Source: an uncultured Pseudomonadota bacterium (GTDB lineage Bacteria; UBA10199; JADFYH01). Taken from it: a stretch of 64,000 nucleotides of DNA. Positions 17,598 through 52,509 of the stretch are shown one piece after another. The notes beneath the pieces were generated by a model, which searched no databases, was not told where the DNA came from, and saw only the letters and a program-made list of their open reading frames with translations. Location of the stretch: assembly GCA_964595045.1 (NCBI GenBank), contig CAZQOW010000001.1, positions 9,183-73,182 of the forward strand. Reading direction: 5' to 3'. The stretch's first letter is position 1. Each line of letters starts with the position of its first letter. A program made the position numbers and the translations under genes.

Positions 17598-17642
17598 TTT
17601 CTGTTTAAGAAAAGTTTTACATTTTTTGGTCTTATCTGCGTT

Positions 17643-24881: not shown

Positions 24882-24882
24882 T

Positions 24883-25890: not shown

Positions 25891-25892
25891 TC

Positions 25893-26639: not shown

Positions 26640-26656
26640 TAGAAAAAATCCAATCG

Positions 26657-27709: not shown

Positions 27710-27715
27710 AAAGTT

Positions 27716-29002: not shown

Positions 29003-29478
29003 CAAAACTTACTTTAAGACTCGCCTCAGGCGATGATGCAAAACTCTTGTGGGAATGGGCGAATGATCCAGAGACGCGCAAATTCTCCTTTTCGAGCGCG
29101 CCAATTGCTTGGCAAACTCATCAAACATGGCTCGCATCGAAATTGAGCAACCCATCTTATTTTTTTCGAATCGCTCTTGATGCCTCTGAAGTACCGATCG
29201 GATATATTCGTTGTGAAAAAAAAGAAAATAGAGGTCTAATTTCAGTCAGTGTCAGCCCACTCATGCGGAGAGAAGGATATGGCAGCAGAATCATTCAATT
29301 GGCAACTCAAGTGATCTTTAAAGAAATGAATGTCGAAATGATTCATGCTTATATTAAAAAAGAGAACCAAGCTTCTCAAAAGACTTTCGAAAAAGCCGGC
29401 TTCCAATACGAAGGGATTGTCGTTCTGGAACAGCATCAAGCTCTTCAATTTACATATCAAAGGAATCAGACCTTATGA
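28999..29478 (+). CDS. pseH: GNAT N-acetyltransferase (PseH-like)
   Basis: 159 aa GNAT fold (RREGYGSRII..., KENQASQKTFEKAGF). Sits between an aminotransferase and pseI. Confidence 0.55.
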   Translation: MTKLTLRLASGDDAKLLWEWANDPETRKFSFSSAPIAWQTHQTWLASKLSNPSYFFRIALDASEVPIGYIRCEKKENRGLISVSVSPLMRREGYGSRIIQLATQVIFKEMNVEMIHAYIKKENQASQKTFEKAGFQYEGIVVLEQHQALQFTYQRNQTL

Positions 29479-35993: not shown

Positions 35994-36818
35994 ATGCCCA
36001 ACAAAATAAAAAAAACCTATATTATCGCCGACATTTCTTCTAATCACATGGGTAATATGGCAATAGCCCAAGCAATGATTGATGTAGCTGCCAATATTGG
36101 TATTGACTGCGTCAAGTTTCAATCTTGGAAGGCAGGCTCACTCCGTAAAGATTTTCCAGATTACAATGCCACCTACAACCGCCACAAAAAAACCGAGCTT
36201 TCCGAAGATGACCATTTACTGTTGATAGAACATTGTAAAAAAAATAGCATCGACTTCCTCACTACCTGCTTTGATCTAAATCGTATTGATTTTTTAGCTT
36301 CTCTTGGAATCGACACAATCAAAGTTGCCAGTCCTGATTGTGGAAGTATTCGGCTTCTTGAATCTTTAATGAAACATTTTAAAAAACTGATTATTTCTAC
36401 GGGCATGACGCAGGATACAGATGTTCAAAAAGCAATTGAAGTGACACGAGGTCATGATGTTGTTTTTCTTCATTGTGTATCGCTCTATCCTACCCCCCCT
36501 GAAAAAGTAAATATGAAGCGATTAGACTGGCTTAAATCAATGGGGGTTCGTGTCGGTTACAGTGATCACACCATGGGAGTGGATGCTGGGAAGCTTGCCA
36601 TATCTCGCGGAGCAGAGATTTTGGAAAAACATTATACTCTCTCCCGTGACTTGCCTGGTAAAGATCAAGCAATGTCTATGATGCCAGAAGAGTTGGCAGA
36701 GCTCTGCCGTTTTGCGAAAGTGGTTGAGCGGATGGATGGGGTATCGCAACCAGAACTCTCTGAAGATGAAAAAAAACTTCGGGCAATTTATGTTGGAAAA
36801 TGGGGAAATAACCGATGA
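35994..36818 (+). CDS. Short NeuB-family nonulosonic-acid synthase (TIM-barrel only, no SAF domain)
   Basis: YIIADISSNHMGNMAIAQAMIDVAANIGIDCVKFQ and GYSDHTMG, 274 aa. Ends before where a SAF domain would begin. Overlaps neuC. Confidence 0.7.
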   Translation: MPNKIKKTYIIADISSNHMGNMAIAQAMIDVAANIGIDCVKFQSWKAGSLRKDFPDYNATYNRHKKTELSEDDHLLLIEHCKKNSIDFLTTCFDLNRIDFLASLGIDTIKVASPDCGSIRLLESLMKHFKKLIISTGMTQDTDVQKAIEVTRGHDVVFLHCVSLYPTPPEKVNMKRLDWLKSMGVRVGYSDHTMGVDAGKLAISRGAEILEKHYTLSRDLPGKDQAMSMMPEELAELCRFAKVVERMDGVSQPELSEDEKKLRAIYVGKWGNNR

Positions 36819-37975
36819 GTGATAAAAAAAGAAAAATTTGCATTGTGGTTGCCAGTCGTGCCAACTATGGAAGAATTAAATCTGTCTTAAAGGCTATTCA
36901 AAAACACCCCTCTCTTGAACTTCAGTTGATCGTCGGCGCCTCTGCCCTTTTACATCGATTTGGAAGTGTTATTGATATTATTCGAAAAGACGGCTTCGAA
37001 CCTAATGCAACTCTCTATTCTATTGTCGAAGGAGAAAATCCAACAACGATGGCTAAATCAACTGGGATGGGCATTATAGATCTAGCAACACAATTCGAAA
37101 ATTTAAAACCTGACGTTGTGCTAACAGTGGCTGATCGATTTGAAACCATGTCGACCGCCATTGCCGCTTCCTATATGAATATTGCTCTCGCGCACACACA
37201 AGGTGGAGAAGTCACAGGCTCACTCGATGAAAGTGTAAGACATGCAATCACTAAACTTGCCCATATTCACTTTCCTGCAACTCCTATCGCTGAGCAAAGA
37301 CTTTTAAAAATGGGAGAGGAACCTGAAAGAATTCGAATGACAGGTTGCCCCTCTTTAGATCCTATTTGTGATATCGATCTTAAACTTCCCGAAGATATTT
37401 TTCGTCGATATGGAGGGGTCGGGGCCGACATCAAAACCAACTCAGAGTACATCGTGGTTCTTCAACATCCAGTGACAACTGAATATGGATCCGGATTAGC
37501 ACAAATTAACGAAACACTGAAGGCTGTCTCTCAACTCAAAAAACCAACGATATGGCTCTGGCCAAATGTTGACGCAGGATCTGACGATATCTCCAAGGGG
37601 CTTCGAACTTTTCGTGAACGGGAAAAACCAGACTATATCCATTTTTTCCGTAACTTCTCAGTTGAGGATTATGCTCGTTTAATCTCTAACTGCATCTGTC
37701 TCATCGGAAACTCTTCCAGTGGGATACGAGAAGGAGCATTACTCGGTACGCCCGTAGTAAATATAGGATCACGCCAGCAAGGTCGAGAACGTGCCCAAAA
37801 TGTATTGGACGCCGATTATAAAGCCGAAGAGATTCTCAACAAGACAAAAATTCAAATTGATCATGGAAAGTATAAATCTAATCCGCTTTATGGAGATGGT
37901 CATGCAGGTATAAGAATTGCGGATAATTTGGCAACAATGTCACTTCACAATCTCCAGAAACGTCTAACCTATTAA
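36815..37975 (+). CDS. neuC: UDP-N-acetylglucosamine 2-epimerase (hydrolysing), NeuC/LegG type
   Basis: ICIVVASRANYGRIKSVLKAI, DRFETMSTAIAASYMNIALAHTQGGEVTGSLDESVRHAITKLAHIHF, 386 aa. Confidence 0.8.
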   Translation: MSDKKRKICIVVASRANYGRIKSVLKAIQKHPSLELQLIVGASALLHRFGSVIDIIRKDGFEPNATLYSIVEGENPTTMAKSTGMGIIDLATQFENLKPDVVLTVADRFETMSTAIAASYMNIALAHTQGGEVTGSLDESVRHAITKLAHIHFPATPIAEQRLLKMGEEPERIRMTGCPSLDPICDIDLKLPEDIFRRYGGVGADIKTNSEYIVVLQHPVTTEYGSGLAQINETLKAVSQLKKPTIWLWPNVDAGSDDISKGLRTFREREKPDYIHFFRNFSVEDYARLISNCICLIGNSSSGIREGALLGTPVVNIGSRQQGRERAQNVLDADYKAEEILNKTKIQIDHGKYKSNPLYGDGHAGIRIADNLATMSLHNLQKRLTY

Positions 37976-38009: not shown

Positions 38010-39407
38010 ATGAAACCACTCCTGTTCATGATTCTTCATAATGATTATATGGCACGTGACTTTGTGGAGAGTGGCGTTTTAGTTCAGTTAAAACAAGAGT
38101 TCGAATTATATTTTGCCATTACTGATAAAAATTTTACCTTGGATCTCTCTCCGTATGGGAAAGTTATTGGAAAATATACAAATCCATCCTGGAGAGAAAG
38201 AATTTGGGAAATTGCCTTTGGCTTAAAACATCTCGCCGACCTCGATCCGATTATTCATACACAAAAAAATCGATTAGACGTGTTTCAAAGAGGTCGCGGA
38301 CCTCGACTAAAAAAACTAGTATTTCTAATTCATCGGATGGGACTTTCGAATTTTTTCAGTAAGATCTTTCAAAAAATTTTTCTTTGGAGTTCCAATAATT
38401 TTATCAACTTTCCTCGACTCCCCTCTGTGGCACTTTTACCTACAGGAATCAATGATCCTTTTTGGTCAGATGCTTTAACTATATGTAAACGAAATAAAAT
38501 CCCTTCACTTACCTTAACTGTCAATTGGGATAATATTGCACATAAAATCTTTCTAGTTCAACCAGATCTTCTAGGGGTCTGGGGGGAACAAGGCTATCTT
38601 TTTGCACGGCTTCTTCAAAAAATTCCTGTCGACAAAATTGTCAATGTCGGGACACCCCGTTTCGAAGCTTATCGAACCGTAAAAGCTTCGCGGATAGAAG
38701 CCCGAAAACAGGTAGACTTTCCGGAAGAAAAACGGATCCTACTTTTCGCCGGGGCTGGGGTGGCATTTGACGAAGTTTCACTGATTGAAGAGTTTGAAAA
38801 GGGATGCAGAGATGGAACACTCCCATCCGATCTCTATTTAGTTTACAAACCACATCCAAAAAGACACAAAAGAGTCGCTGAACCTCCTTTGAAACCTGAG
38901 ACATACAAATATGTTCAAGTATTGCAAAACTCCGGTTATACACCACTTCAACAATACCCAATTTTGCTCTCAGCGGTAGATGGATTGATCACCCCCTTTT
39001 CCACTATGCTATTGGAAGGGGCATTAATGGGTTTACCCGCTATTGGACTTGCTTATGACGATCCTAATCATGGGGATTTCTCTTGGTCAAACGCAAGAAT
39101 GAATAATCACCTTCATCCAATGCTTGATGAAAGATGGATGATTCAATGCTTCGAGCGTAAAGAATTTATCCCCAGCATACTCAAACTTTTACCGATGATT
39201 CGTAATCCCAAAGTAACAACCTCTGCTTATCAGACATCTCAGTTTATTCTGTTCAACGATCATCAAACATATGCGGACCGAATTACTCAAATTTTGAAAC
39301 AAGTCTCATCTCAACCTTATTCAAAAAAAATCTCGGATGAATTAGAAAAACAGATGGTGGAAAAAGGACAGAGCTATGTTAGCGAGCCGAATGTGCCAAC
39401 TTTGTAA
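38010..39407 (+). CDS. Uncharacterized GT-B-like protein. Candidate NulO/capsule transferase.
   Basis: YLVYKPHPKRH...LITPFSTMLLEGALMGLPAIGLAY is a GT-B C-terminal-domain pattern. No classical GT motif. 465 aa. Confidence 0.4.
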   Translation: MKPLLFMILHNDYMARDFVESGVLVQLKQEFELYFAITDKNFTLDLSPYGKVIGKYTNPSWRERIWEIAFGLKHLADLDPIIHTQKNRLDVFQRGRGPRLKKLVFLIHRMGLSNFFSKIFQKIFLWSSNNFINFPRLPSVALLPTGINDPFWSDALTICKRNKIPSLTLTVNWDNIAHKIFLVQPDLLGVWGEQGYLFARLLQKIPVDKIVNVGTPRFEAYRTVKASRIEARKQVDFPEEKRILLFAGAGVAFDEVSLIEEFEKGCRDGTLPSDLYLVYKPHPKRHKRVAEPPLKPETYKYVQVLQNSGYTPLQQYPILLSAVDGLITPFSTMLLEGALMGLPAIGLAYDDPNHGDFSWSNARMNNHLHPMLDERWMIQCFERKEFIPSILKLLPMIRNPKVTTSAYQTSQFILFNDHQTYADRITQILKQVSSQPYSKKISDELEKQMVEKGQSYVSEPNVPTL

Positions 39408-41042: not shown

Positions 41043-41756
41043 ATGTTTTCTCACCTCCCTCCAGCTCTCAAACCGGTATTGGCGTTCATTCCTGCAAGAG
41101 CTGGTAGCAAAGGAGTTCCTAATAAAAATCTTAGAACACTCGATGGAAAAAGCTTAATGCAACTCGCCATAGAATGTGCAAAATCATCCTCTATTTTTGA
41201 CCGTATTGTCGTTTCATCCGATGGAGAAGAAATTCTAAAAGAAGCCACCCGATATGGTGCCGAAACGATTCAACGTCCCCCAGAACTTGCAATTGATAGT
41301 GCCAATATTCTGGATTCAATCACTCATACTCTTCAGTTTTTATTTTCTCAAGGATATCAACCAGCTTCTATTGCACTTTTAGAACCCAGCTCTCCATTTC
41401 GTACACCGGCACTTGTTCAACAGGTAGTTTCCTTATTAAGTGAGCATGAAGCTGCTTTTACAGTAACTGAAGTAGATTTAAAATTTCACCCTGCAAAACA
41501 ATTTATTCTAAATGATCAAAGAATAGCCCTTCCCTCCTGTTCAAATCTGGCTTCTCCAGTGAATCGTCAAGAATTAGACCCAACGTTCATTAGAAATGGT
41601 GGAGTATATGCTTTTCGAACAGAAATGTTTCTTCGAGAAAAATCAGTCTTAGGAAAAAGGCCCCGGGCTTTTATAACAAAGGAAGTTTTGATAAATATCG
41701 ATACGATGGCAGATTATAAACTTGCTCAAAAGCTGATACAAAAAATAAATAAATAA
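41043..41756 (+). CDS. neuA: Acylneuraminate cytidylyltransferase (CMP-NulO synthetase, NeuA/LegF-like)
   Basis: LAFIPARAGSKGVPNKNLRTLDGKSLMQLAIECAKSS...RIVVSSDGEEI aligns with the NeuA N-terminus. 237 aa. Confidence 0.8.
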   Translation: MFSHLPPALKPVLAFIPARAGSKGVPNKNLRTLDGKSLMQLAIECAKSSSIFDRIVVSSDGEEILKEATRYGAETIQRPPELAIDSANILDSITHTLQFLFSQGYQPASIALLEPSSPFRTPALVQQVVSLLSEHEAAFTVTEVDLKFHPAKQFILNDQRIALPSCSNLASPVNRQELDPTFIRNGGVYAFRTEMFLREKSVLGKRPRAFITKEVLINIDTMADYKLAQKLIQKINK

Positions 41757-42775: not shown

Positions 42776-43621
42776 ATGAGTATCGTATCCATTTTGAAAT
42801 CAACTCTTAAACCAATAATCCCATCCTTCATATTTCAAAGAACTCATATCATACGTAAAAAAATCCAGAAACTTCGTTTCTCTTTTTTTGAAAAAACTGT
42901 AGACTGTGATGTTTTAGGAAATACAATTAAAATAGGGGTTTCCTCGGATATCGAAAAATACCGCACTGAAACTTATTCCACCAAAGAGCCTGAAACACTG
43001 AACTGGTTAAAAAAGAATCTTCAGGAGGGGGATGTTTTTTACGATATCGGAGCAAATATTGGGCTTTATTCATTATATGCAGCGAAACTTCATCCGCATA
43101 TTAAAATATTCGCTTTCGAACCAGAATCCCAAAACTTTGCAAGACTCTGCAAAAATTTGATTCTCAATCATGCAACTCAAGTAATTCCTTGTAGTTTTCC
43201 TTTAACTGATAGAGAAATATTCGATTACTTTTTTATCAGTGAATTGAAGGCAGGATGTGCCTTTCATGAGTTCGGATCGCCTAATCAATACCGTTGGTCT
43301 AAAGAAACAGAACCGTTCAAACAGGGAGCTTTAGGAGTTTCTTTAGATTGGCTGGTCAACGTTCTTAAAGTTCCGGCCCCCACATTGTTAAAGATTGATG
43401 TGGATGGAATTGAAGAAAAAATATTGGCGGGAGGATCTTCACTAATCACACAAAGGAGCATTCGCTCCATTCTTATAGAAGTGACAGATAACAACGGGGA
43501 AAAAGATCGGGTAATCAACTTATTTAAAAAGGCACAATATCAACTTACAGAAGAAGGCGAAGAGCTGACCACTTCCAATGGATCCAGAAGCCGCAATCTC
43601 ATATTTGATCGAATCTCTTAA
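42776..43621 (+). CDS. FkbM-family methyltransferase
   Basis: FYDIGANIGLYSLYAA motif, FAFEP, IDVDGIEEKIL. 281 aa. Confidence 0.7.
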   Translation: MSIVSILKSTLKPIIPSFIFQRTHIIRKKIQKLRFSFFEKTVDCDVLGNTIKIGVSSDIEKYRTETYSTKEPETLNWLKKNLQEGDVFYDIGANIGLYSLYAAKLHPHIKIFAFEPESQNFARLCKNLILNHATQVIPCSFPLTDREIFDYFFISELKAGCAFHEFGSPNQYRWSKETEPFKQGALGVSLDWLVNVLKVPAPTLLKIDVDGIEEKILAGGSSLITQRSIRSILIEVTDNNGEKDRVINLFKKAQYQLTEEGEELTTSNGSRSRNLIFDRIS

Positions 43622-43637
43622 ATGATTTTAAGATTAA

Positions 43638-45197
43638 ATGAATCTCAGGAAAAACTCAAAAAAAGATTTCATATTTTCATATGCCAAGACCATTGCTTCT
43701 GCCGGCTCCCAGAACCTTTCACTGAACTGGTGGCCAACTTGGCTTTCTTCAAAAAACAGGTACCTCTCTTCAGCTACACGCTATTTTGAAGAAATTTTTC
43801 TTAATGAAAAAACTTTTCATGAACCTCCCAAGAAATTTCGTTACGGACTTGCCCTTATTTCTGCAATTGCTCGCTCGATCAAATGTAGTATAAAACTACT
43901 TTTTCAAATAGGCTTAATGCGTATTAAATATGCATCTCTTACCAAGAGAATAAAAAAAGAATTCAAGGGTAAAGAAGTTTATCTCATCAAGACGTTTGCT
44001 TATAAACATAGTTTTAAGGATAAGTCATTTAGAGATGTTTACTTTGAAACTTTACCACAGCATTTAAAAAAAAGAGGGATTGCGACTCTCACTATTTTTG
44101 ATCCTATTGATTGTTTTAAAGAGACATTCCGTTATGGCTTCGCAAATCTACTAAAAGAAAAAGCCTTACCTTTCTATCTCTTCTGTAACTTCTTTGACCT
44201 TTTAAAGGCTTGGAAATACTTGATTAGAGGTGCTCTTTGCGCCCAATTTCAAAATGTTCTTTTTGGTTCCCAGGATGTATCTTGTGAAATTAAACGCTTC
44301 CATCAAATCGATATGTTGGGAGCAAACTCTCTTTACAGCTTCGTGATTTATTTGGCCTTCTGTAGAATTTCAAAAACTTTCAATTTGAGTCACTTTCTCT
44401 TTACTTTTGAAAATAACCCTTGGGAGCGTTTATGCCAAATCGCCGTAAAAAAGCAAAACCCAAAAACCAAAACTATAGGATATCAACACTCAGTATTAGC
44501 CGAGTCTTCAATGAATATGTTTGCAGGAGAAGGTGAGCTTTCTTACGCTCCTTATCCGGATCGTGTACTGACAGTCGGTTGGGAGACAGCACAAATTATC
44601 AAACAATATAGTGCTGCGCCGCCCCCTTCTCCAGAGCCTGCATGCGCTCTAAGATTTCAATATCTCGAAAAAATGCAGACTCGTTCTGGGCCTGTAACAA
44701 AAACTCTACTCGTCGCTCTAGATGGTGCTCGCGAAGCCTCTCAGGTAATTCATTACATTTTTCAAAACTTATCGGCTTTAAAAGATTGGGAAATAATTAT
44801 TAGAATGCATCCATCTTTATCGATAAGTAAATTAAAAGGGATAAATCTTGATTTTTCTTATTCTAATATTGAACTTTCTAAAAATAGAAAGCTTTACGAA
44901 GATCTAAGTAGAAGTGGAGTTGTTTTCTATCAAGGCAGCTCTGTTGCTCTCGAGGCATTAATGCTTGGTCTTCCGATCATTCATTTTGATACTAATAGAA
45001 TTCTATCCGATGATCCCCTTTTTGCTTGTCCTCACTTAAAATGGATAACCCAACATTCTTCGGCACTTAATAATGTTTTAGAGAATATATTGACTATCCC
45101 CCTTATTTCTCTTAATGAGTCACGTCTGAGAGCTCAAGAATATTTACGTAAATATTTTTATCCGGTCACTATTCAATCAATGAATCTCTTTATTTGA
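43638..45197 (+). CDS. Uncharacterized GT-B-like protein. Candidate NulO/capsule transferase or polymerase.
   Basis: EIIIRMHPS...VVFYQGSSVALEALMLGLPIIHFD is a GT-B C-terminal pattern. 519 aa, no classical motif recognised. Confidence 0.4.
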   Translation: MNLRKNSKKDFIFSYAKTIASAGSQNLSLNWWPTWLSSKNRYLSSATRYFEEIFLNEKTFHEPPKKFRYGLALISAIARSIKCSIKLLFQIGLMRIKYASLTKRIKKEFKGKEVYLIKTFAYKHSFKDKSFRDVYFETLPQHLKKRGIATLTIFDPIDCFKETFRYGFANLLKEKALPFYLFCNFFDLLKAWKYLIRGALCAQFQNVLFGSQDVSCEIKRFHQIDMLGANSLYSFVIYLAFCRISKTFNLSHFLFTFENNPWERLCQIAVKKQNPKTKTIGYQHSVLAESSMNMFAGEGELSYAPYPDRVLTVGWETAQIIKQYSAAPPPSPEPACALRFQYLEKMQTRSGPVTKTLLVALDGAREASQVIHYIFQNLSALKDWEIIIRMHPSLSISKLKGINLDFSYSNIELSKNRKLYEDLSRSGVVFYQGSSVALEALMLGLPIIHFDTNRILSDDPLFACPHLKWITQHSSALNNVLENILTIPLISLNESRLRAQEYLRKYFYPVTIQSMNLFI

Positions 45198-45271: not shown

Positions 45272-45991
45272 ATGATAGCCGCTTTACTTATTGGTCGTAA
45301 AGGAAGTGTCGGATTTCCTGGAAAAAATAGTTATCCCATTAATGGAAAACCTCTGGCATCTTATCCCATGCATGCTGCCAAATCATCCTCTCTTGTAGAT
45401 CATATTTTCATCTCCACTGACTGCGAAAAGCTCATCGATTTGGCCAAGGAAAACGACCTTAAAATTATTAATCGCCCTGATTATCTCGCCACCAGACAGG
45501 CTCTGGGGGAAGATGTCTTTGTTCATGGTTATAAAGAAATCAAGCAACAAATGGGAAACTTAGAGTTTATGGTTCTCCTTCATTGTAACTCTGCAACTGT
45601 TACAGGAAAAATGATAGATGAAGGAATTCAAACGTTGCGCAAAAACCCTTCCTTCGATTCGGCTGTCTCTGTTTCACGTTATAATATGTGGAGCCCATTA
45701 CGTGCCCGAAAAATTGGATCTGATGGACTTTTACATCCCTTCATCCCACTTGAAACTTTTGGTGATCCAAAAACCCTTAATTGTGATCGGGACTCTCAAG
45801 GAGATGTCTATTTTGCTGATATGGGAGTTTCGATTGTACGCTCGTACTGTTTAGAGCATATTGAAGAGGGATTACTTCCTCAGAAATGGATGGGGCAAAA
45901 AATATATCCATTGATCCAAGAGGCAGGATGCGATGTAGATTATGAGTTTCAAATTCCTCAAACCGAATATTGGATTAAGAAAAACTTATAG
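45272..45991 (+). CDS. Acylneuraminate/CMP-Kdo-type cytidylyltransferase (third CMP-sugar synthetase in the locus)
   Basis: MIAALLIGRKGSVGFPGKNSYPINGKPLASYPMHAAKSS...HIFISTD. 239 aa. Confidence 0.75.
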   Translation: MIAALLIGRKGSVGFPGKNSYPINGKPLASYPMHAAKSSSLVDHIFISTDCEKLIDLAKENDLKIINRPDYLATRQALGEDVFVHGYKEIKQQMGNLEFMVLLHCNSATVTGKMIDEGIQTLRKNPSFDSAVSVSRYNMWSPLRARKIGSDGLLHPFIPLETFGDPKTLNCDRDSQGDVYFADMGVSIVRSYCLEHIEEGLLPQKWMGQKIYPLIQEAGCDVDYEFQIPQTEYWIKKNL

Positions 45992-46033
45992 TGAGTGATT
46001 CAACCGTAAGTTTTTTTAGAAATATATTTTCAT

Positions 46034-47176
46034 TTGATCATGAAAAACAGACAAGAATACATTAAACACCATAGCTTTAAAGAATTCCATTCAAATGTAG
46101 ATACAAAACAGGAGACTCAGCGTGAAAGGGTCATTAGAATTTTGCACGGAGCAAAACAGTCTCAGCATGAAAAAATATTCCAATCCATTCTTTCCGATCT
46201 AGAAAACTATTCGAACAGTGAGATCGACTTTAAAATTACTCTTCATATTGCGGATGAGCTCTCTAAGATAGAAGATATAGATGTTTCACGCTATCTTTAC
46301 CATCGATATCGATACGATATATATCCAAAAAAGAAAATATTGGACCAATTCCCCCCTTATTTGCAGATTGAACCAACCTCAATATGTAATTACCGATGTG
46401 TTTTTTGTTATCAAACAGATGCTGAATTCACAAATAAGAAAAATGGTTTTATGGGGTTTATGTCGTTTGAACTATTTAAGATAATCATCGATCAGATTGA
46501 AGATAAAATCGATTTTTTATCACTCGCATCCAGAGGTGAACCACTTTTGTGTCGTGATATTGATCAAATGCTCGAGTACTGCCAAGGAAAATTTTTAGGG
46601 CTTAAGCTGAACACAAATGCGTCCATGCTAAATGAAAAACATTCTCATGCAATTTTATCTGGTGGGGTAAATACTGTAGTCTTCTCTGCCGATGCAGCAA
46701 ATGAGAATTTGTATAGTCAATTGCGTGTCAATGGAAGTTTAAAAAAAATTTTAGCAAACATTCAAATGTTTCAAAAAATTAAGGAAACACATTATCCCAA
46801 TTCGAAAATTATCACCCGTGTTTCAGGGGTGCGATACTCCGATAGTCAAGATATGGACTCAATGATTAACCTTTGGAGTAGTCTAGTGGATCAGATTTCG
46901 TTTGTGGCCTATAACCCTTGGGAAAACATCTATGCCTCTGAACCTAATGAAATAAAAAAAGCCTGTAGTGATCTTTGGCGCCGAATGTTTATTTGGTTCG
47001 ATGGCACTGTTAACCCATGCGATACCGATTATAAATCAAGCCTTAAAATTGGGAACATCAAAGAAAATCGAATTGAAGATCTTTGGAGTTCAATTGATTA
47101 TCAATTCCTTCGTGAACAACATATCAAATCTAAACGTAGCTGCGTTAATCCTTGTAACCGTTGTACGGTCATATAA
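46034..47176 (+). CDS. Radical SAM enzyme with C-terminal SPASM/twitch-like Cys cluster
   Basis: CxxxCxxC as IEPTSICNYRCVFCYQ. C-terminal CSDLWRRMFIWFDGTVNPCDTDY...SCVNPCNRC. 380 aa with an N-terminal extension of about 110 aa. Confidence 0.75.
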   Translation: MIMKNRQEYIKHHSFKEFHSNVDTKQETQRERVIRILHGAKQSQHEKIFQSILSDLENYSNSEIDFKITLHIADELSKIEDIDVSRYLYHRYRYDIYPKKKILDQFPPYLQIEPTSICNYRCVFCYQTDAEFTNKKNGFMGFMSFELFKIIIDQIEDKIDFLSLASRGEPLLCRDIDQMLEYCQGKFLGLKLNTNASMLNEKHSHAILSGGVNTVVFSADAANENLYSQLRVNGSLKKILANIQMFQKIKETHYPNSKIITRVSGVRYSDSQDMDSMINLWSSLVDQISFVAYNPWENIYASEPNEIKKACSDLWRRMFIWFDGTVNPCDTDYKSSLKIGNIKENRIEDLWSSIDYQFLREQHIKSKRSCVNPCNRCTVI

Positions 47177-47887
47177 ATGAAAAAGAAAAAAATTCTTATC
47201 ACCGGAGCAGGAACCGGAATAGGCTTAGCCATCACCTGTAAATTCTTGGAACAAGGATGGGAAGTTGTTGCTCATTATAATCTTTCCGGAGATCAATTAA
47301 TAAAGCTTAAAAAACAAAATTTTCCTCTTAGACTTCTTAAAGCTAACTTTGCCAAAACCTCTGAAATCAAAAATTTTATTAAAGTTGTGTCAAAAGAATC
47401 GTTTAATATTCTCATCAATAATGCAGCCATATATGATCTTTCTTTGAGCGCTAAAAATCGGATTTCTTCGATTGAAGATGTTTTAAGAGTCAACATGATA
47501 GCCCCCGCATTAATTGCCGAGGCTCTTTTCCAAAAAATGAAACTTCAAAAACGAGGGCACATTATTAATATTAGTTCGATCGGTGCCAAATATGGTAGCG
47601 ACAGTGAAAACAAATTTTATAGCATGAGTAAACGCGGACTAGAGTCTTTAACCAATACGCTCGCTCGAGAAGGAGCGTCCTTTAATATAGCTGTTAATAC
47701 AATACGACCAGGAGTTATTCAAACGAATTTCCATATTAAAAATAAACGAGTTTCAAAACAGCGACTTCATAAAATTCCTATGAAGCGTCTTGGTAAGCCA
47801 GAAGAGATTGCGGATTTTATATTTTATTTGTGTGATCAACAAACTTTTCTAACTAATCAAACGATTGCGATCGCAGGAGGAGAATAA
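47177..47887 (+). CDS. Short-chain dehydrogenase/reductase (SDR)
   Basis: ILITGAGTGIGLAI (TGxxxGxG), NNAA, catalytic YSMSK. 236 aa. ATG overlaps the radical SAM stop. Confidence 0.75.
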   Translation: MKKKKILITGAGTGIGLAITCKFLEQGWEVVAHYNLSGDQLIKLKKQNFPLRLLKANFAKTSEIKNFIKVVSKESFNILINNAAIYDLSLSAKNRISSIEDVLRVNMIAPALIAEALFQKMKLQKRGHIINISSIGAKYGSDSENKFYSMSKRGLESLTNTLAREGASFNIAVNTIRPGVIQTNFHIKNKRVSKQRLHKIPMKRLGKPEEIADFIFYLCDQQTFLTNQTIAIAGGE

Positions 47888-47890
47888 ATC

Positions 47891-48820
47891 ATGCACGACA
47901 TCCTAATTTCTGCTACCCCTTTTGCCGAGTTCAGCACTTATCCTATTCAAAGACTTTCTGAACATGGCTTTAGAGCTACTATAAGTCCCTATGGATCTTA
48001 CGCAACCGAAGAGCAAAGCATCTCTTTATTAAAAGAAACCATCGGTATTATTGCAGGATTAGAACCTCTTACCAGAAAAGTATTAGAATCTTCTCCAACA
48101 CTTCGAGTCATCTCTCGAGTCGGCATAGGATTAGATAATATTGATTTGCAAGCTGCTGAACAATTAAATATTAAAGTTTTAAATACTCCGGATGCACCCA
48201 CTGATGCAGTTGCCGAGTTAACACTTGCACATCTCCTTGCACTGCTTCGCCAAACTCCTAAAAACAATTTGGAAATGAAAAATGGAGAATGGATTCAAAA
48301 TCCTGGTACCCTTTTAAAAAATAAAACGGTTGGTGTTATAGGTCTTGGAAGAATCGGAAAAAGATTCATTGAATTGCTTAAAGCATTCAAAGTAAAAATT
48401 TTAGGATTTGACCTCACCCCCCCATGGCCTTTCATTGAGGAATATGGTGTTAATCATTGCAATAATATTGAAGAAATTATTCAGGATGCAGACATCATTT
48501 CACTCCATATTCCGCATACCAAAGGGATCGGTTATACAATTGGAAAAAAAGAAATCGCCAAAATGAAAAAAAATGCGACTCTAATCAATTGTTCCAGAGG
48601 AGGCTTGGTCGATGAAAACGCTTTGTTACAAGCATTACAGGAAAAACGAATCAGCGCGGCTGCAATCGACTGCTTTGAAGAAGAACCCTATCGAGGTTCT
48701 CTGAAACAACTTGATAATATTATTCTTACTCCTCATATAGGGTCTTATACTAGAGAAACACGGGTCCAGATGGAATCCGAAGCAGTTGAAAATTTGATTA
48801 ATTATCTAAAACAGATATGA
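47891..48820 (+). CDS. D-isomer-specific 2-hydroxyacid dehydrogenase (phosphoglycerate/glycerate dehydrogenase-like)
   Basis: KTVGVIGLGRIGKRF, HIPHTKGIGYTIGKKEIAKMKKNATLINCSRGGLVDENAL. 309 aa. Confidence 0.8.
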   Translation: MHDILISATPFAEFSTYPIQRLSEHGFRATISPYGSYATEEQSISLLKETIGIIAGLEPLTRKVLESSPTLRVISRVGIGLDNIDLQAAEQLNIKVLNTPDAPTDAVAELTLAHLLALLRQTPKNNLEMKNGEWIQNPGTLLKNKTVGVIGLGRIGKRFIELLKAFKVKILGFDLTPPWPFIEEYGVNHCNNIEEIIQDADIISLHIPHTKGIGYTIGKKEIAKMKKNATLINCSRGGLVDENALLQALQEKRISAAAIDCFEEEPYRGSLKQLDNIILTPHIGSYTRETRVQMESEAVENLINYLKQI

Positions 48821-49491
48821 ATTTGAAATATAAAATACTTTCATATCCTTTAGAACAAGAAACGCCTCTTTATGGGGATACTCCCAAAATTCAGTTTGTC
48901 CCACTAAAGAGCATCGCTAAAGGAGACAGTTCAAATACAACTTTTGTCTCATTTTGTACACATTCCGGAACCCATATCGATGTTCCACTTCACTTTTCCT
49001 CTCAAGGATTTTCCATCACTGACTTTACAATTGAAGATTTTATTTTTCACTCCCCATTTTTGCTAACGTGCCCTAAAGAACCGGGTACTTTGGTGGAAAT
49101 TAATGATATTTTAAAATACGAAGAGATGTTAATAAAATGCGATATACTTTTAATTCGCACGTTATTTTCTCGCTTTCGCGGAAAAGAAATTTATCGAACT
49201 CAGAACCCTGGAATATCCTCTCTGTTAGCAAAATTTATTGTCGATCGATTTAAAAATATTCGTGCAATCGGTATTGACTCAATTTCTATTAGTTCTTATC
49301 AACACCGACCTATGGGAAGGGAAACGCATCAAATTTTTCTAGAGAGAGATTCTAATTACCCACCGATGATCATTATTGAAGATTTATACTTAGAAAATCT
49401 AAATCAACTGGAAAAACTATTTGTTATCCCATTATTTTTAAAAGGATTAGATGGTTCACCCGTCACTGTATTTGCCCAGATTAAACTATGA
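48817..49491 (+). CDS. Cyclase-family protein (kynurenine formamidase-like metal hydrolase)
   Basis: HSGTHIDVPLHF matches the cyclase HxGTHxDxPxH motif. 224 aa. Confidence 0.6.
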   Translation: MNLKYKILSYPLEQETPLYGDTPKIQFVPLKSIAKGDSSNTTFVSFCTHSGTHIDVPLHFSSQGFSITDFTIEDFIFHSPFLLTCPKEPGTLVEINDILKYEEMLIKCDILLIRTLFSRFRGKEIYRTQNPGISSLLAKFIVDRFKNIRAIGIDSISISSYQHRPMGRETHQIFLERDSNYPPMIIIEDLYLENLNQLEKLFVIPLFLKGLDGSPVTVFAQIKL

Positions 49492-50324
49492 ACCTCAGTC
49501 AATTAACCAAAGATGTAATTCTCGTCTGCCAGCGTGCTGGAGAATATCTTTTAAAAACTATCAACGATGTTAAGCCTGAGTTGAAAGGCTCGAACGATTT
49601 TGTGACCCAAGTAGATGTAGGTTCGGAAAAAATACTACTCAAAGGACTTGCTACTCTTTGCCCTCAAGCGAACTTCTTGAGTGAAGAAGCTGGAGAACAA
49701 AAGAATAATTTGAATGAAAGCTTGTTATGGGTAGTTGATCCTTTAGATGGTACTGTAAACTATGCTTTTGGTATTCCTTTTTTTGCAATATCAGTGGCTC
49801 TTATAAAAGAACAAAAACCTATTTTAGCGGTGGTCTATGCTCCAGCCCTTAACGAATTGTTTGTTGGGGAAATTGACAGAGGATCATATCTTAATAATAA
49901 GAGATTATCCTTAGATGAAAACAAAAACCAATTGTTAAAAATGATAGCAACAAGTGCCGGAATGACAGAAAGCGATTTTACTGGTAAAACATCCTATTAT
50001 CACCAAAACCTTCTTCCTCATTATAATCGTTTGCGACTCCTCGGTTCGCAAGCACTCCATTTGTGTTATGTGGCAGCCGGCAGATTAGAGGTTGCATTAA
50101 CTAACCAAGCAAAATTATGGGATGATGCTGCAGGATCTCTCATTCTGCAGGAGGCGAGTGGGATTTATAGTGATTTTTCCGGAAAAGAAATTTTTCCTCT
50201 CAAGAGAAATTCTCCTGTTTACGAAGGAAAATCATACGAAAGTATTGGTTCTTCAAGTCAAAAAGCTCTTGATAAAATTGTAAAACTCCTCAATGTTAAT
50301 CAAGAGGAAAGAGGTATTATATGA
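49488..50324 (+). CDS. Inositol-monophosphatase-family sugar-phosphate phosphatase
   Basis: WVVDPLDGTVNYAFGIPFFAISVAL (IMPase motif), LGSQALHLCYVAAGR. 278 aa. Confidence 0.75.
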   Translation: MNLSQLTKDVILVCQRAGEYLLKTINDVKPELKGSNDFVTQVDVGSEKILLKGLATLCPQANFLSEEAGEQKNNLNESLLWVVDPLDGTVNYAFGIPFFAISVALIKEQKPILAVVYAPALNELFVGEIDRGSYLNNKRLSLDENKNQLLKMIATSAGMTESDFTGKTSYYHQNLLPHYNRLRLLGSQALHLCYVAAGRLEVALTNQAKLWDDAAGSLILQEASGIYSDFSGKEIFPLKRNSPVYEGKSYESIGSSSQKALDKIVKLLNVNQEERGII

Positions 50325-51262
50325 GCGAAAAATTAGTTTGCGTTTTCGGCGGAAGTGGTTTTCTTGGAAGTCATGTCGCTGATACGCTAACCGAAGCAGG
50401 ATATAAAGTTAGAATTTTTGATTCTCAACCCTCCCCATTTATCCAAAAAAACAGCCAAGAAATGGTCATAGGAGATATTATGGATTTTGAGGCTGTCAGG
50501 AAAGCAAGTGAAGGGTGTAATATTATTTATAATTTTGCAGGTCTATCTGACATTGATCAAGCAAATGATAGACCTCTCGATACGGTTCACCTTAATGTAT
50601 TAGGTAATATTAATATCTTAGAAGCGGCTCGACAAGTAAATGCAACAAGATTTATTTTTGCTAGCAGCATTTATGTATTATCTGAGAAGGGATCTTTCTA
50701 TAGAGCCAGTAAACAATCAGCAGAAAGATTCGTAGAGGCTTATCATGAAAGGTATGGTCTCGAGTATACAATTTTACGTTATGGTTCTCTTTACGGAAGA
50801 AGAGCAGATGAACGTAATGGAATTTATCGCATGGTCAAGCAGGCGCTAGAAAATCGTTGTATCATTTACAATGGCGATCCTGACTCAAGTAGAGAGTACA
50901 TTCATGCTAAAGACGCGGCTCAATTAAGCGTTCAAATTCTTAATCCTACTTATGCAAACCGTCATATTATTTTAACAGGGCATGAGCGTTTTAAGGTAAA
51001 AGACCTGATGAAATTAATTGCGGAAATGATACCCGGTGGAGCGGAGATTCATTTTGGAGAAAAGATGATGAAAAGTCATTATGTAATGACTCCCTATGCG
51101 TTTAATCCAAAAATTGGCCACAAACTTCTTGCGGATGATTATATTGATCTTGGACAGGGAATATTAGATTGTCTTACAGAGATTTACGAAAATAACTATA
51201 AAAATGAACAGGTTAAAGATAATAAACTAGTCTCATTTGCCCAACTCGTTTATGAAGAATAA
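50321..51262 (+). CDS. NAD-dependent epimerase/dehydratase-family protein
   Basis: LVCVFGGSGFLGSHVADTL Rossmann, YxxxK (YRASKQSAE). 313 aa. Confidence 0.7.
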   Translation: MSEKLVCVFGGSGFLGSHVADTLTEAGYKVRIFDSQPSPFIQKNSQEMVIGDIMDFEAVRKASEGCNIIYNFAGLSDIDQANDRPLDTVHLNVLGNINILEAARQVNATRFIFASSIYVLSEKGSFYRASKQSAERFVEAYHERYGLEYTILRYGSLYGRRADERNGIYRMVKQALENRCIIYNGDPDSSREYIHAKDAAQLSVQILNPTYANRHIILTGHERFKVKDLMKLIAEMIPGGAEIHFGEKMMKSHYVMTPYAFNPKIGHKLLADDYIDLGQGILDCLTEIYENNYKNEQVKDNKLVSFAQLVYEE

Positions 51263-51312: not shown

Positions 51313-52509
51313 ATGTATTATTACTCCCTTCTACTATTCGGCATTTCCTCCTTTTTTATTACCATGACTCTCTTTGGTATTCGTGCGCCTTTTAGTATAT
51401 ATGTTCCATTTATTTGTCTCCTTGATTTCCCTTTTTTTCTAAAAATTATAGAACGTTTACGGCTTCATCTAACTCATGTTTCTTATGTAGCGTTGTTTTT
51501 TTCTTACGTTCTATTCAATGCATTATTTCATTCATTAAGTATTGCTATTATTTCCCTTATCATTATTACTCTTCTTAAACTTCTTATCCTCATTTATCTC
51601 TTTTTTTACTTCACAGATAGAATCAGAAAATTCGGGCTTCACTTTTTCTATGCAGGACTTTTTGTCCATTTTTTATACGTCTGTTATCAACAGATATCGT
51701 ATGCTTTTTTTGGTGCTTCACTCCCTTTCTCCACCCCATTAGATCTTCCTTTTGTCATTCATGATGGAGGATTTACTGTTGCTGACTCTAACTTTGGAGG
51801 CACCGAAAGCTTTATCATCTCAACTATATTTCGGGTACGAGTTTCTGGTTTCACTCAAGAACCTAGCTATCTGATTGCTGTCTCTTTTCCGCTCCTTCTT
51901 ACCCGCATTTCTAAATTTTTTAAATATATTTTGATTTTTTTCATCGTCGAAGCTCTTGCAAAAAACGCTCTTCTCATCATCGGACTTTTCAGCAGTTACT
52001 TTATCCTTTCACGCTTCTTAAAGGATCTCCACGCTTTTCTTATTACACTTTTAGGAACAATCGCAATCCTTTCACTTACTTCTTATTGGACAATTTCCCT
52101 GGGTGCGACCTATCTGAGCAGGTTTAGTCCTTTTTATCACTACATTTACCAAGCTAATTTCATGGAAAAAATATTTGGAGTTGGAATGTATAACTATGCC
52201 ATGACTTATGGCACTGGTTTAGTTAATGAAATGACCCCTCCCATGGGGGCTTTTGGAGGTATTCTGATAGAATTAGGCCTCATTGGTTTTTTATTTTATA
52301 TGGTTGCAATTGTTTATATTTTTAATTCTGCCCAAAATAAATATCTTTTTATCTGTATTATTGGCTTACTCTTTAGTTGGGGTTATTTCACAGCTTGGCC
52401 AATCTGGCCTTTTGCATTGGCGATGGATCGCGCTTTACCATTCAGTCCAAAGATCCCGAAACGAATTAAAAATAATGTTGTTTATTCAAGTCTTGCTCAA
52501 CGAGCTTAA
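51313..52509 (+). CDS. Wzy-like polysaccharide polymerase / O-antigen-ligase-family membrane protein
   Basis: 398 aa, about 10-11 hydrophobic helices, large loop near the C-terminal third. Location among GT genes. No soluble-enzyme motif. Confidence 0.5.
   Translation: MYYYSLLLFGISSFFITMTLFGIRAPFSIYVPFICLLDFPFFLKIIERLRLHLTHVSYVALFFSYVLFNALFHSLSIAIISLIIITLLKLLILIYLFFYFTDRIRKFGLHFFYAGLFVHFLYVCYQQISYAFFGASLPFSTPLDLPFVIHDGGFTVADSNFGGTESFIISTIFRVRVSGFTQEPSYLIAVSFPLLLTRISKFFKYILIFFIVEALAKNALLIIGLFSSYFILSRFLKDLHAFLITLLGTIAILSLTSYWTISLGATYLSRFSPFYHYIYQANFMEKIFGVGMYNYAMTYGTGLVNEMTPPMGAFGGILIELGLIGFLFYMVAIVYIFNSAQNKYLFICIIGLLFSWGYFTAWPIWPFALAMDRALPFSPKIPKRIKNNVVYSSLAQRA

Follow-up and report, generated by a model that had tools for sequence, protein, structure and literature searches.

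A conserved module of a Twitch-type radical SAM enzyme and a NeuA-like cytidylyltransferase in a bacterial surface-glycan locus, possibly for a modified CMP-activated ulosonic sugar

Sialic, pseudaminic and legionaminic acids and Kdo govern how hosts, phages and grazers see bacterial surfaces. To our knowledge, all known routes to these acidic keto-sugars consist of aldolase-type synthases and of tailoring that depends on NAD or pyridoxal phosphate. The ketone formed by BtrN, the nearest solved relative of the enzyme described here, is subsequently transaminated. BtrN is a Twitch-type radical S-adenosylmethionine (SAM) dehydrogenase which acts on a carbohydrate-like substrate, turning one of its secondary alcohols into a ketone, and carries a Cys4 auxiliary cluster (PMC10337720). 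The present analysis concerns a radical SAM gene in a 64,000-nt stretch of contig CAZQOW010000001.1 (hereafter the window), where it follows a cytidylyltransferase (CytT) gene in a surface-glycan operon. The original prediction had singled out five genes at 46034-50324 (the cassette), encoding the radical SAM enzyme, a short-chain dehydrogenase/reductase (SDR), a D-isomer 2-hydroxyacid dehydrogenase (2-HADH), a cyclase and an inositol monophosphatase (IMPase)-family phosphatase, as lying outside the standard nucleotide-sugar pathways. The block indeed follows no such standard pathway, and within the locus it is where unusual chemistry is most likely encoded. With moderate confidence, 45272-51262, probably together with 43638-45197, is read as one module which makes a modified 2-keto-acid (ulosonic) sugar activated with cytidine monophosphate (CMP), distinct from the pseudaminic and Neu/Leg-type sugars whose genes lie upstream.

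Further described systems share parts of this logic. The radical SAM diol dehydratase AprD4 and the NADPH reductase AprD3 of apramycin biosynthesis together give a deoxy sugar. WlbA/WbpB and WlbC/WbpE act as NAD-dependent 3-dehydrogenase and aminotransferase on a nucleotide-activated sugar acid, and oxidation followed by transamination of an ulosonic acid is also found in the KdnB/KdnA route to 8-amino-Kdo. KguD, a 2-ketogluconate-6-phosphate reductase of the 2-HADH family, interconverts 6-phosphogluconate and its 2-keto form. A Twitch radical SAM enzyme acting on a sugar alcohol is a known enzyme type; new are the radical SAM family of the window, its N-terminal domain, its obligate pairing with CytT, its replaceability by NAD dehydrogenases and the sugar. 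The pathway appears to be previously undescribed. A search of the accessible literature for radical SAM enzymes together with nonulosonic or CMP-activated sugars found no report linking the two. According to a 2026 preprint, tailoring at the CMP-sugar level is common and unexplained CMP-ulosonic acids exist; radical SAM enzymes are not mentioned there (10.64898/2026.04.20.719630).

Gene content and conservation of the module

Family calls were made with Pfam and NCBIfam models and their curated cut-offs. The genes of the module and those directly upstream are:

42776..43621, + strand: FkbM-family methyltransferase (TIGR01444, 2.6e-20), a frequent but optional companion of the module
43638..45197, + strand: 519-aa protein without a Pfam family, candidate transferase (TIGR04326, weak match of 43 bits)
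45272..45991, + strand: NeuA-like cytidylyltransferase, CytT (PF02348, 7e-13)
46040..47176 (ORF call from TTG 46034), + strand: Twitch-type radical SAM enzyme (PF04055, 5e-14; SPASM PF13186, 7e-13)
47177..47887, + strand: classical FabG-like SDR (adh_short, 3e-35)
47891..48820, + strand: 2-HADH of the short phosphoglycerate dehydrogenase (PGDH)/glyoxylate-reductase type (2-Hacid_dh_C, 2e-51)
48817..49491, + strand: cyclase-family (kynurenine-formamidase-like) metal hydrolase (PF04199, 2e-20)
49488..50324, + strand: IMPase-family phosphatase (Inositol_P PF00459, 2e-53)
50321..51262, + strand: extended SDR with a GalE-like fold (Epimerase PF01370, 6e-43)

The five open reading frames (ORFs) of the cassette, all on the + strand, and their five domain assignments were confirmed by Pfam matches of 7e-13 to 2e-53. 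Tested against the named NCBIfam equivalogs, none of the five reaches a curated cut-off, and judged by their sequences these proteins are superfamily members, not known enzymes. The radical SAM gene probably starts at ATG 46040, 48 nt behind the end of the CytT gene, and the database protein (P0001) has 378 aa. Overlaps of 1-4 nt had been described throughout the cassette; 4-nt ATGA overlaps are found at the 2-HADH/cyclase and cyclase/IMPase junctions, whereas the radical SAM and SDR genes abut and the SDR and 2-HADH genes are separated by a 3-nt gap. A further ATGA overlap joins the IMPase gene to the extended SDR gene, which is therefore coupled as tightly as the genes within the cassette.

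Homologues of the radical SAM enzyme were searched in one genome per species (185,579 species genomes). Relatives occur in 216 species, and carriers of the module range from SAR11, the most abundant bacteria of the ocean, to Leptospira, Nitrospinae, Omnitrophota and cyanobacteria. Culturable carriers include Leptospira vanthielii, L. soteropolitanensis, Phormidium sp. CCY1219 and Spirulina sp. CCNP1310. Neighbourhoods were analysed for 80 of these loci, to which all locus counts refer unless stated otherwise. The subsets used are 41 complete loci with at least 6 kb on each side of the radical SAM gene (for the SDR/aminotransferase count), 36 complete loci, 38 large loci (for NeuB within 10 kb) and 75 loci (for an 8-kb window). 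CytT is present in 77/80 loci with a median identity of 59%, and its gene lies directly upstream of the radical SAM gene in 59 cases. The extended SDR follows with 64/80 loci (median identity 49%), of which 52 are retained at a stricter orthology cut of at least 38% identity, and with 37 of the 41 complete loci. For the SDR and the 2-HADH, 43/80 (34%) and 37/80 loci (41%) were counted, and for the cyclase and the IMPase only 4/80 (37%) and 2/80 (63%). The module is thus widely conserved, as the original prediction had suggested checking, yet the proposed five-gene limits are too narrow, omitting CytT and the extended SDR and including two genes which are almost unique to the lineage. In the closest relative locus, L083 (74% identity), the seven genes from CytT to the extended SDR have the identical order.

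Sugar enzymes neighbour the radical SAM gene in 80/80 loci. Recurrent companions are a HAD phosphatase, a HisC-like class I/II aminotransferase, a xylose-isomerase-type TIM barrel (nearest to 5-keto-L-gluconate and ketose 3-epimerases), 6-phosphogluconolactonase-family (Pgl) proteins, one cluster of which exceeds the curated cut-off, B12-binding radical SAM proteins and several methyltransferases. Homologues of the FkbM methyltransferase lie within 6 kb of the radical SAM gene in 17/41 complete loci. The B12-binding proteins (HpnJ/PhpK-like) occur in about 45% of the related loci, e.g. at L083:7570-9258, L019:14632-16182 and L054:12781-14319, and are absent from the window. They are probable C- or P-methyltransferases and might relate to the chain-extended (C10) CMP-ulosonic acids of Magnetospirillum (10.64898/2026.04.20.719630).

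The profile of the CytT family matches CMP-Neu5Ac synthetases at 2e-22, compared to 3e-4 for KdsB. A PF02348 score of 49 bits (cut-off 22.6) and the invariant residues D221 and D223 place CytT in the CTP_transf_3 family. With NeuA, PseF, LegF and KdsB it shares this fold, the conserved CTP-binding half at the N-terminus and a DVD motif in the C-terminal part. In contrast to them, it stays below the equivalog cut-offs (68 vs 205 bits for PseF; KdsB scores of 17-32), its sugar-binding half has diverged, and it belongs to a family of its own with about 60% identity across phyla. CytT is probably a NeuA-like CMP-ulosonic acid synthetase, and it is separate from the PseF-like cytidylyltransferase at 41043-41756.

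Upstream of CytT, the 43638-45197 protein was connected by an iterative profile search to a divergent superfamily of about 590 aa, which includes a DUF6716 "putative glycosyltransferase" cluster. The model it weakly matches, TIGR04326, is named "surface carbohydrate biosynthesis protein". A member of this superfamily is encoded within 8 kb of the radical SAM gene in 33/36 complete loci, and the protein is a candidate for the dedicated transferase of the module's sugar.

The radical SAM enzyme and its relation to BtrN

With 53 bits for PF04055 (cut-off 29.5) and a predicted fold that matches radical SAM structures, the enzyme belongs to the radical SAM superfamily. The CX3CX2C motif (C118/C122/C125), which in this superfamily binds the SAM-cleaving [4Fe-4S] cluster within a partial TIM-barrel core, is invariant in 26/26 aligned members. 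In the C-terminal part, only four cysteines are invariant in this 26-member alignment, C311, C329, C374 and C377, with a spacing of 18/45/3. A SPASM domain has a 7- or 8-Cys C-terminal motif ligating two auxiliary [4Fe-4S] clusters, while a Twitch domain is a shortened SPASM-like domain with one auxiliary cluster and four Cys ligands. The cysteine pattern is that of a Twitch domain with a single predicted cluster, and a full two-cluster SPASM domain is ruled out by just four invariant C-terminal cysteines. That the Pfam SPASM model nevertheless scores is explained by Twitch being a truncated form of SPASM; the SPASM-like cysteine cluster noted earlier is therefore only partly right.

Among the 120 best relatives in the database, identity ranges over 54-74%, and for 118 the alignment spans at least 93% of the protein, with the N-terminal extension. 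Their sources are Omnitrophota, Planctomycetes, Nitrospinae, cyanobacteria, Lentisphaerae and other groups, and all bear merely generic names. As far as these alignments tell, the family is unnamed, distinct and strongly conserved across phyla. No NCBIfam model comes near its cut-off, which answers the question of the SPASM subfamily with an unnamed family whose nearest solved relative is BtrN.

BtrN is the closest match of the family profile in the PDB (7e-18), spanning the core and the Twitch domain, and its C187, C232 and C235 align on C329, C374 and C377. Both have the CX3CX2C motif and a single Cys4 motif with identical 18/45/3 spacing. In the AlphaFold (AF2) model (predicted local distance difference test, pLDDT, 86.6), BtrN also gave the most complete cover in Foldseek, with a target-normalised template modelling (TM) score of 0.70-0.75; further Foldseek matches are SPASM/Twitch enzymes including the sugar-modifying DesII and BlsE. 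In contrast, the sequences are only 16-18% identical, and the radical SAM family has an extension found in no other architecture. BtrN also belongs to an aminoglycoside cluster and acts on a cyclitol, whereas the enzyme of the window is encoded in a surface-glycan locus beside CytT, with an acid sugar or its CMP ester as the presumed substrate. By analogy, the radical SAM enzyme is proposed to be a putative ketone-forming oxidase or dehydratase.

The N-terminal extension, predicted at 110 aa, is real, measures about 106 aa and is kept across the family. It is predicted to be a four-helix unit with no β-sheet. A fold search with the extension gave no structural match (best E = 2.2), and among 1.84 billion representative proteins it was seen in the radical SAM family only, mostly in gene fragments. 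Going by the model, the extension is not a peptide-recognition domain.

This bears on an extremely improbable explanation, namely that the enzyme is a peptide or protein maturase, of the anaerobic sulfatase-maturating (anSME) or the ribosomally synthesised and post-translationally modified peptide (RiPP) kind, or a viperin-like nucleotide-modifying defence enzyme. The Pfam SPASM match, SuiB as the top Foldseek hit by E-value and weak pVip matches agree with it. However, all such models score 30-86 bits against cut-offs of 170-650 (340-650 for the maturases). For viperins, NF038283 reaches 45 of 180 bits and the PADLOC pVip models 44-48 bits on the generic core only; viperins have no auxiliary cluster and are associated with nucleotide kinases, whereas a Twitch domain is present here. 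For maturases, the motif is that of a single auxiliary cluster, and the four-helix unit has no structural match and no fold like a RiPP recognition element (RRE). Because only 48 nt separate CytT and the radical SAM gene, there is no room for a precursor gene, and sugar enzymes surround the gene in each of the 80 loci. The maturase/anSME reading is thus contradicted by the hidden Markov model scores and by the lack of an RRE fold and of a precursor gene, and the viperin/defence reading by the model scores. The original prediction had named grouping with such maturases, near a precursor peptide, as evidence against its own view; the enzyme stands apart from anSME and peptide maturases, with no precursor peptide and no RRE domain.

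A second family of Twitch radical SAM proteins was observed, 22-31% identical to that of the window, mostly 307-364 aa long (up to 378) and with a much shorter N-terminal region. The same seven cysteines are kept in 15/15 members. These proteins pair with CytT, their genes often lying upstream of the CytT gene, or are encoded near NeuB/PseF-like genes (L018:1253-2200, L022, L026, L035, L039 and L040, and the metagenome loci L092-L160). Among annotated plasmids, the sole match is a 23%-identical "radical SAM/SPASM domain-containing protein" of Azospirillum sp. B510 plasmid pAB510f (41661-42725; L084). Its neighbours are a GT41 glycosyltransferase, rfbC and a TylF-type O-methyltransferase, again a sugar context. 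No match to the radical SAM enzyme was found in phages or in E. coli genomes, the latter by a DNA-only and hence insensitive search.

Alternating partners and the late steps

In BtrN-type dehydrogenases, a secondary alcohol undergoes a two-electron oxidation with the auxiliary cluster as electron acceptor. Such a conversion of an alcohol to a ketone is supported only indirectly, by the alternation of SDR and aminotransferase genes and by the replacement of the radical SAM enzyme with Gfo/Idh/MocA dehydrogenases. In the 41 complete loci, a FabG-like SDR is found 24 times and a HisC-like aminotransferase 17 times, with no locus having both or neither. A strict positional test over 43 loci (three genes before and two after the radical SAM gene) gave 24 SDR, 17 aminotransferase, 0 both and 2 neither. 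Within an 8-kb window, the 75 loci are divided into 40, 27, 1 and 7, respectively, and the seven "neither" loci are all on contigs that end near the radical SAM gene on one side or both. The two types are interleaved in the radical SAM tree, including within Leptospira and Pelagibacteraceae, so the swap occurred repeatedly around the same radical SAM enzyme.

The gene directly downstream of the radical SAM gene encodes an SDR in 26 cases, an aminotransferase in 19 and a TIM barrel in 11, the latter often lying between the radical SAM and SDR genes. In radical-SAM-anchored loci, the TIM barrel accompanies the SDR type only (13/40 vs 0/27), while in CytT-anchored metagenome loci it occurs with the aminotransferase type too. 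A ketone intermediate would be expected to bring a reductase, a transaminase and a keto-sugar epimerase into competition for a single slot, and the SDR at 47177-47887 is proposed to be a putative reductase of such a keto intermediate.

A reciprocal test was anchored on CytT in an independent metagenome collection, in which CytT orthologues are 59-76% identical. Their partners are the window-type radical SAM enzyme, the second Twitch radical SAM family (here 27-31% identical to the window type), or Gfo/Idh/MocA dehydrogenases without a radical SAM enzyme. One of these dehydrogenases matches PDB 3q2k/3q2i (4e-77), which we take to be the nucleotide-sugar 3-dehydrogenase WlbA/WbpB. Twenty CytT-anchored loci with a flank of at least 4.5 kb have the radical SAM gene only (9), the dehydrogenase only (5), both (2) or neither (4). 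A Gfo/Idh/MocA dehydrogenase is near the window-type radical SAM gene in 0/37 genome loci and is present in 5/9 loci without a radical SAM gene. The combined contrast of loci with and without a radical SAM gene is 2/48 vs 5/9 (Fisher p = 6e-4), in a test that pools two collections and includes related loci (L105, L110, L111, L133), a first point against the proposed pathway. An NAD(P) sugar dehydrogenase in place of the radical SAM enzyme supports the alcohol-to-ketone role. The SDR/aminotransferase alternation holds in the CytT-anchored loci too, and the extended SDR is still present where the Gfo/Idh/MocA dehydrogenase appears and the radical SAM gene is missing.

The same neighbourhoods make it improbable that the keto intermediate is formed by the extended SDR, in the manner of 4,6-dehydratases and C4 oxidases of classical nucleotide-sugar pathways, with the SDR or aminotransferase acting on it and the radical SAM enzyme carrying out a stand-alone epimerisation, rearrangement or decarboxylation. 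The extended SDR is almost as universal as the radical SAM enzyme (37/41), and sugar enzymes of other chemistry such as DesII and BlsE are among the structural matches; HygY and NeoN are stand-alone radical SAM sugar epimerases. However, the SDR or aminotransferase gene is directly downstream of the radical SAM gene in 45 cases and in 11 more by way of the TIM barrel, while it adjoins the extended SDR gene in only 1/44 and 6/31 cases. The extended SDR clusters with the phosphatase and the lactonase and lacks the dehydratase D/E pair. Moreover, Gfo/Idh/MocA dehydrogenases stand where the radical SAM enzyme is missing though the extended SDR remains.

In the pathway that we infer, including its catalytic steps, the order of activation versus oxidation and the identity of the sugar, the late steps are better supported and the early steps weaker. 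CytT would first activate the acid sugar with CTP. The radical SAM enzyme would then abstract a hydrogen at one of the sugar's secondary alcohol carbons, giving a ketone by two-electron oxidation (BtrN-like) or by dehydration of a vicinal diol (AprD4-like). The FabG-like SDR would reduce the ketone, the net result being an epimerisation or a deoxygenation. In sister loci, the HisC-like aminotransferase in the SDR slot would lead to an amino sugar, and in others the Gfo/Idh/MocA NAD(P) dehydrogenase would act in place of the radical SAM enzyme. Epimerisation or dehydration by the radical SAM enzyme had been among the earlier hypotheses and agrees with a BtrN-like Twitch enzyme followed by a ketoreductase. 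The C-methylation suggested alongside is unlikely, because the enzyme has no B12 domain.

The oxidise-then-transaminate logic of BtrN resembles that of the aminotransferase-type sister loci. WlbA/WbpB with WlbC/WbpE show this logic on an activated acid sugar, and a close homologue of the dehydrogenases (4e-77 to 3q2k) occurs in CytT modules lacking the radical SAM gene; the window differs in its radical SAM oxidant, in the SDR that occupies the aminotransferase slot and in the CMP instead of UDP carrier. AprD4/AprD3 are alike in that a radical SAM enzyme is followed by a ketoreductase on a sugar, which would explain a deoxy-ulosonic acid product. The likeness is limited to pathway logic, as the Foldseek match to AprD4 is weak (E = 1.6e-3), its N-terminal domain is another one and it has no Twitch Cys4 motif. 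If true, the proposed pathway would add radical chemistry to the acidic keto-sugars. It would also predict a family of undescribed epimeric, deoxy and amino acid sugars from a combinatorial gene code (radical SAM enzyme or NAD dehydrogenase; reductase or aminotransferase; with or without epimerase and methyltransferases), and offer enzymology a Twitch enzyme with a soluble substrate and natural NAD-dependent counterparts.

Precursor genes, the substrate and the surrounding glycan locus

The 2-HADH, present in 19/41 complete loci, stays below the SerA-type cut-offs, with 257 vs 454 bits for the PGDH equivalog TIGR01327 and 190 vs 404 for PRK11790. Its closest PDB match is 1wwk (1e-53), and it scores 129 bits with 2-ketogluconate reductase. 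In L066, L126, L132 and L144, CytT-2HADH fusions of 588-645 aa were found, with an N-terminal CytT domain (29-33% identical to that of the window) and a C-terminal 2-HADH (42-44%). In other loci, an unrelated 2-hydroxyacid dehydrogenase of the Ldh_2 type adjoins CytT. The 2-HADH is proposed to create or interconvert a 2-keto acid function on a phosphorylated sugar acid. KdnB/KdnA and KguD are precedents for the chemistry only, the enzyme families being different or sharing just the superfamily.

The IMPase scores 182 bits with PF00459 and stays below the equivalogs SuhB (130 vs 332), HisN (119 vs 275) and CysQ (110 vs 229). It was seen only in the window and in L083. Since no homologue of the HAD phosphatase is encoded in the window, the IMPase most simply replaces it, and it is proposed as a non-orthologous replacement of the HAD phosphatase of other loci. 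A cyclitol reading, in which the IMPase would go with the BtrN-like enzyme, was dismissed, as neither an inositol-phosphate synthase nor a deoxy-inosose synthase is found and the IMPase is confined to the lineage.

The HxGTHxDxPxH motif announced for the cyclase is present in its translation as HSGTHIDVPLH. The protein matches kynurenine formamidase in the PDB (3e-10) and scores 59 vs 223 bits with the arylformamidase (KynB) model TIGR03035. It occurs in only five independent loci, between the 2-HADH and phosphatase genes in the window, L083 and L019. The cyclase is never found together with a Pgl-family gene, in numbers too small for significance, and a replacement of Pgl by the cyclase is a positional hint only.

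The extended SDR has a YRASK catalytic motif and lacks the D/E pair of dehydratases, and its alignment with the solved nucleotide-sugar enzymes that match best is limited to the Rossmann half. An identification as an Azf-type glucose-6-phosphate dehydrogenase is tentative at most, the match having only 43 bits and being confined to the Rossmann half. Genes found beside that of the extended SDR are Pgl in 7/7, HAD in 18/31 and IMPase in 2/2 cases. The Pgl-like gene was also considered as Campylobacter PtmF, which is a 326-aa oxidoreductase (PMC4481668), and this was rejected.

At least one gene for a 2-HADH, phosphatase or lactonase is found in 26 of the 36 complete loci. A one-strand block of seven genes, Pgl, 2-HADH, extended SDR, HAD, CytT, radical SAM and aminotransferase, is shared by L029 (Nitrosomonadaceae) and L032 (Nitrospinaceae). 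L043 (Bacteriovoracaceae) has CytT, radical SAM, SDR, extended SDR, Pgl, 2-HADH and HAD, after which only a glycosyltransferase, FnlA/B/C-type genes and an initiating transferase follow; no NeuB-type synthase is encoded nearby. A NeuB-family gene lies within 10 kb in 10/38 large loci, usually with a second, PseF-like cytidylyltransferase, and in 28/38 there is none. Together, the adjacency of these genes, the L029/L032 blocks, L043, the CytT-2HADH fusions, the Ldh_2 neighbours and the few NeuB genes suggest that this sub-module prepares the substrate of CytT.

The 2-HADH, cyclase, IMPase and extended SDR would be the local form of a 2-HADH/Pgl/HAD/extended-SDR sub-module, which would supply the acid sugar by starting from a phosphorylated sugar acid, with the 2-keto function introduced by the 2-HADH and the phosphate removed by the phosphatase. 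A 6-phosphogluconate-type precursor leading to a hex-2-ulosonic acid would fit, KguD being a chemical precedent and the 4-deoxy-2-hexulosonic acid of the E. coli K3 capsule a glycan precedent. This bears on the earlier hypothesis that the 2-HADH and phosphatase act on a phosphorylated three-carbon acid and give glycerate, lactate or hydroxypyruvate to decorate pseudaminic or legionaminic acid (Pse/Leg), with the radical SAM enzyme modifying this substituent. Its core, a dehydrogenase and a phosphatase acting on a phosphorylated hydroxy acid, is retained; more probably, this acid is a sugar acid and is itself turned into the activated sugar. As a whole, the three-carbon version is very improbable and explains the least among the alternatives. 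It agrees with the short phosphoglycerate dehydrogenases and glyoxylate reductases as nearest relatives of the 2-HADH, with the adjacent phosphatase and with the known glyceroyl-type Pse decorations. Yet none of the genes conserved with the module encodes an acyl-activating enzyme, an acyl carrier or an N-acyltransferase, and the 2-HADH and phosphatase occur in about half of the loci, whereas CytT, radical SAM and SDR or aminotransferase are constant. It also leaves the dedicated CytT, the lactonase genes (Pgl beside the extended SDR in 7/7 cases), the CytT-2HADH fusions, the SDR/aminotransferase alternation, the epimerase-like TIM barrel and the large transferase unexplained.

A more specific version of the proposed pathway, put forward tentatively and rather unlikely, would make CMP-activated hex-2-ulosonic acids, a new class, without NeuB or KdsA. 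The 2-HADH would oxidise a 6-phosphogluconate-type acid at C2, the phosphatase would act next and the NeuA-like enzyme would cytidylylate the product. The Twitch radical SAM enzyme would deoxygenate or oxidise this CMP-sugar, which an SDR or aminotransferase would finish. The capsule of E. coli K3 contains 4-deoxy-2-hexulosonic acid, the genetic locus of which was still undetermined in 2023 (PMC10433991). If true, this route would include the first radical SAM enzyme in ulosonic-acid biosynthesis and could supply the missing logic for such deoxy-hexulosonic acids and for surface sugars of SAR11, Leptospira and Nitrospinae.

Besides the pooling mentioned above, several observations weigh against the CMP-ulosonic acid pathway as proposed. 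The reaction type is transferred from BtrN over a large distance at 16-18% identity. In the CytT-anchored loci alone, the exclusivity of radical SAM and Gfo/Idh/MocA genes is not significant (p = 0.16), and the extended SDR, not the radical SAM enzyme, could be the ketone maker. The cyclase-family hydrolase is possibly a lactonase substitute or a deacylase, a role that amounts to a guess. Ten of the 36 complete loci, mostly of Pelagibacteraceae, have no 2-HADH, phosphatase or lactonase gene nearby, so the precursor sub-module is dispensable or encoded elsewhere. Finally, NeuB/NeuC genes lie 8-9 kb upstream in the window, and the substrate could be a nonulosonic acid.

The latter would make the module a tailoring unit for a NeuB-derived nonulosonic acid, e.g. 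the product of the NeuB/NeuC pair at 35994-37975, a possible though doubtful explanation. CytT would be its CMP synthetase, the radical SAM enzyme and SDR would epimerise or deoxygenate it, and the 2-HADH and phosphatase would carry out a side reaction such as removal of a 9-phosphate. In agreement with this, the CytT family resembles NeuA more than KdsB, three NeuB-family genes but only two recognisable cytidylyltransferases are encoded in the window, 10/38 large loci have a NeuB-type gene, and tailoring at the CMP-nonulosonate level is documented (10.64898/2026.04.20.719630). However, the 28/38 large loci without a NeuB-type gene within 10 kb, the usual second, PseF-like cytidylyltransferase in the remainder and the apparently complete L043 without NeuB weigh against it. 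It would also leave unexplained why Pgl adjoins the extended SDR, why CytT and 2-HADH are fused and why Ldh_2 substitutes occur.

The cassette is embedded in a + strand surface-glycan operon of about 42 kb, which contains PseB/C/H/I/G, three NeuB-family synthases, NeuC, a PseF-like cytidylyltransferase, a LegB-like dehydratase and an initiating transferase. At the start of the operon, 17118-19310 encodes a NusG/RfaH-like paralog followed by a Wzi capsule-assembly protein, which fits an antitermination-controlled capsule or O-antigen locus. To the left of the operon lie the ordinary chromosomal genes argF/D/B, hslUV and xerC. The GC content of the cassette (0.35-0.36) does not depart from that of the neighbouring DNA, and promoter-like or terminator-like sites are not enriched within the cassette.

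The pseudaminic acid set is complete in the region 20794-31624, with PseB at 21714, PseC at 22703, PseH at 28999, PseI at 29475 and PseG at 30521. All exceed their curated cut-offs except for PseH, which is weak (60 bits vs 93). The set is interrupted by genes for a Gfo/Idh/MocA oxidoreductase (23877), a divergent NeuB-like synthase (24883), a 248-aa ORF without a family (25893), an acyltransferase-3 fragment (27098) and a transaminase resembling glutamate-1-semialdehyde aminomutase (27716; 446 bits vs a cut-off of 486). These additional genes suggest a second, non-canonical nonulosonate branch. The pair at 35994-37975 consists of a short NeuB-like synthase (274 aa, without a SAF domain) and a NeuC-type hydrolysing 2-epimerase, and the PseF-like cytidylyltransferase at 41043-41756 follows a few genes later.

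Four ORFs in or at the edge of the glycan locus, 38010-39407, 25893-26639, 14023-14646 and 51313-52509, have no Pfam or NCBIfam match. The translation of 51313-52509 is hydrophobic and multi-pass, and is probably a Wzy-like polymerase or a ligase. Two large, probable surface proteins are encoded at both sides of the locus, at 14643-15716 and at 59454-62276 (- strand). One has lamin-tail and Big_5 domains, and the other, of 940 aa, has a C-terminal LamG/concanavalin-like domain. An ORF at 2381-2878 resembles the PA2171-family ribosome-binding persister protein (123 bits; cut-off 190) and lies in a low-GC stretch, the first 2000 bases having 28% GC compared to about 38% elsewhere.

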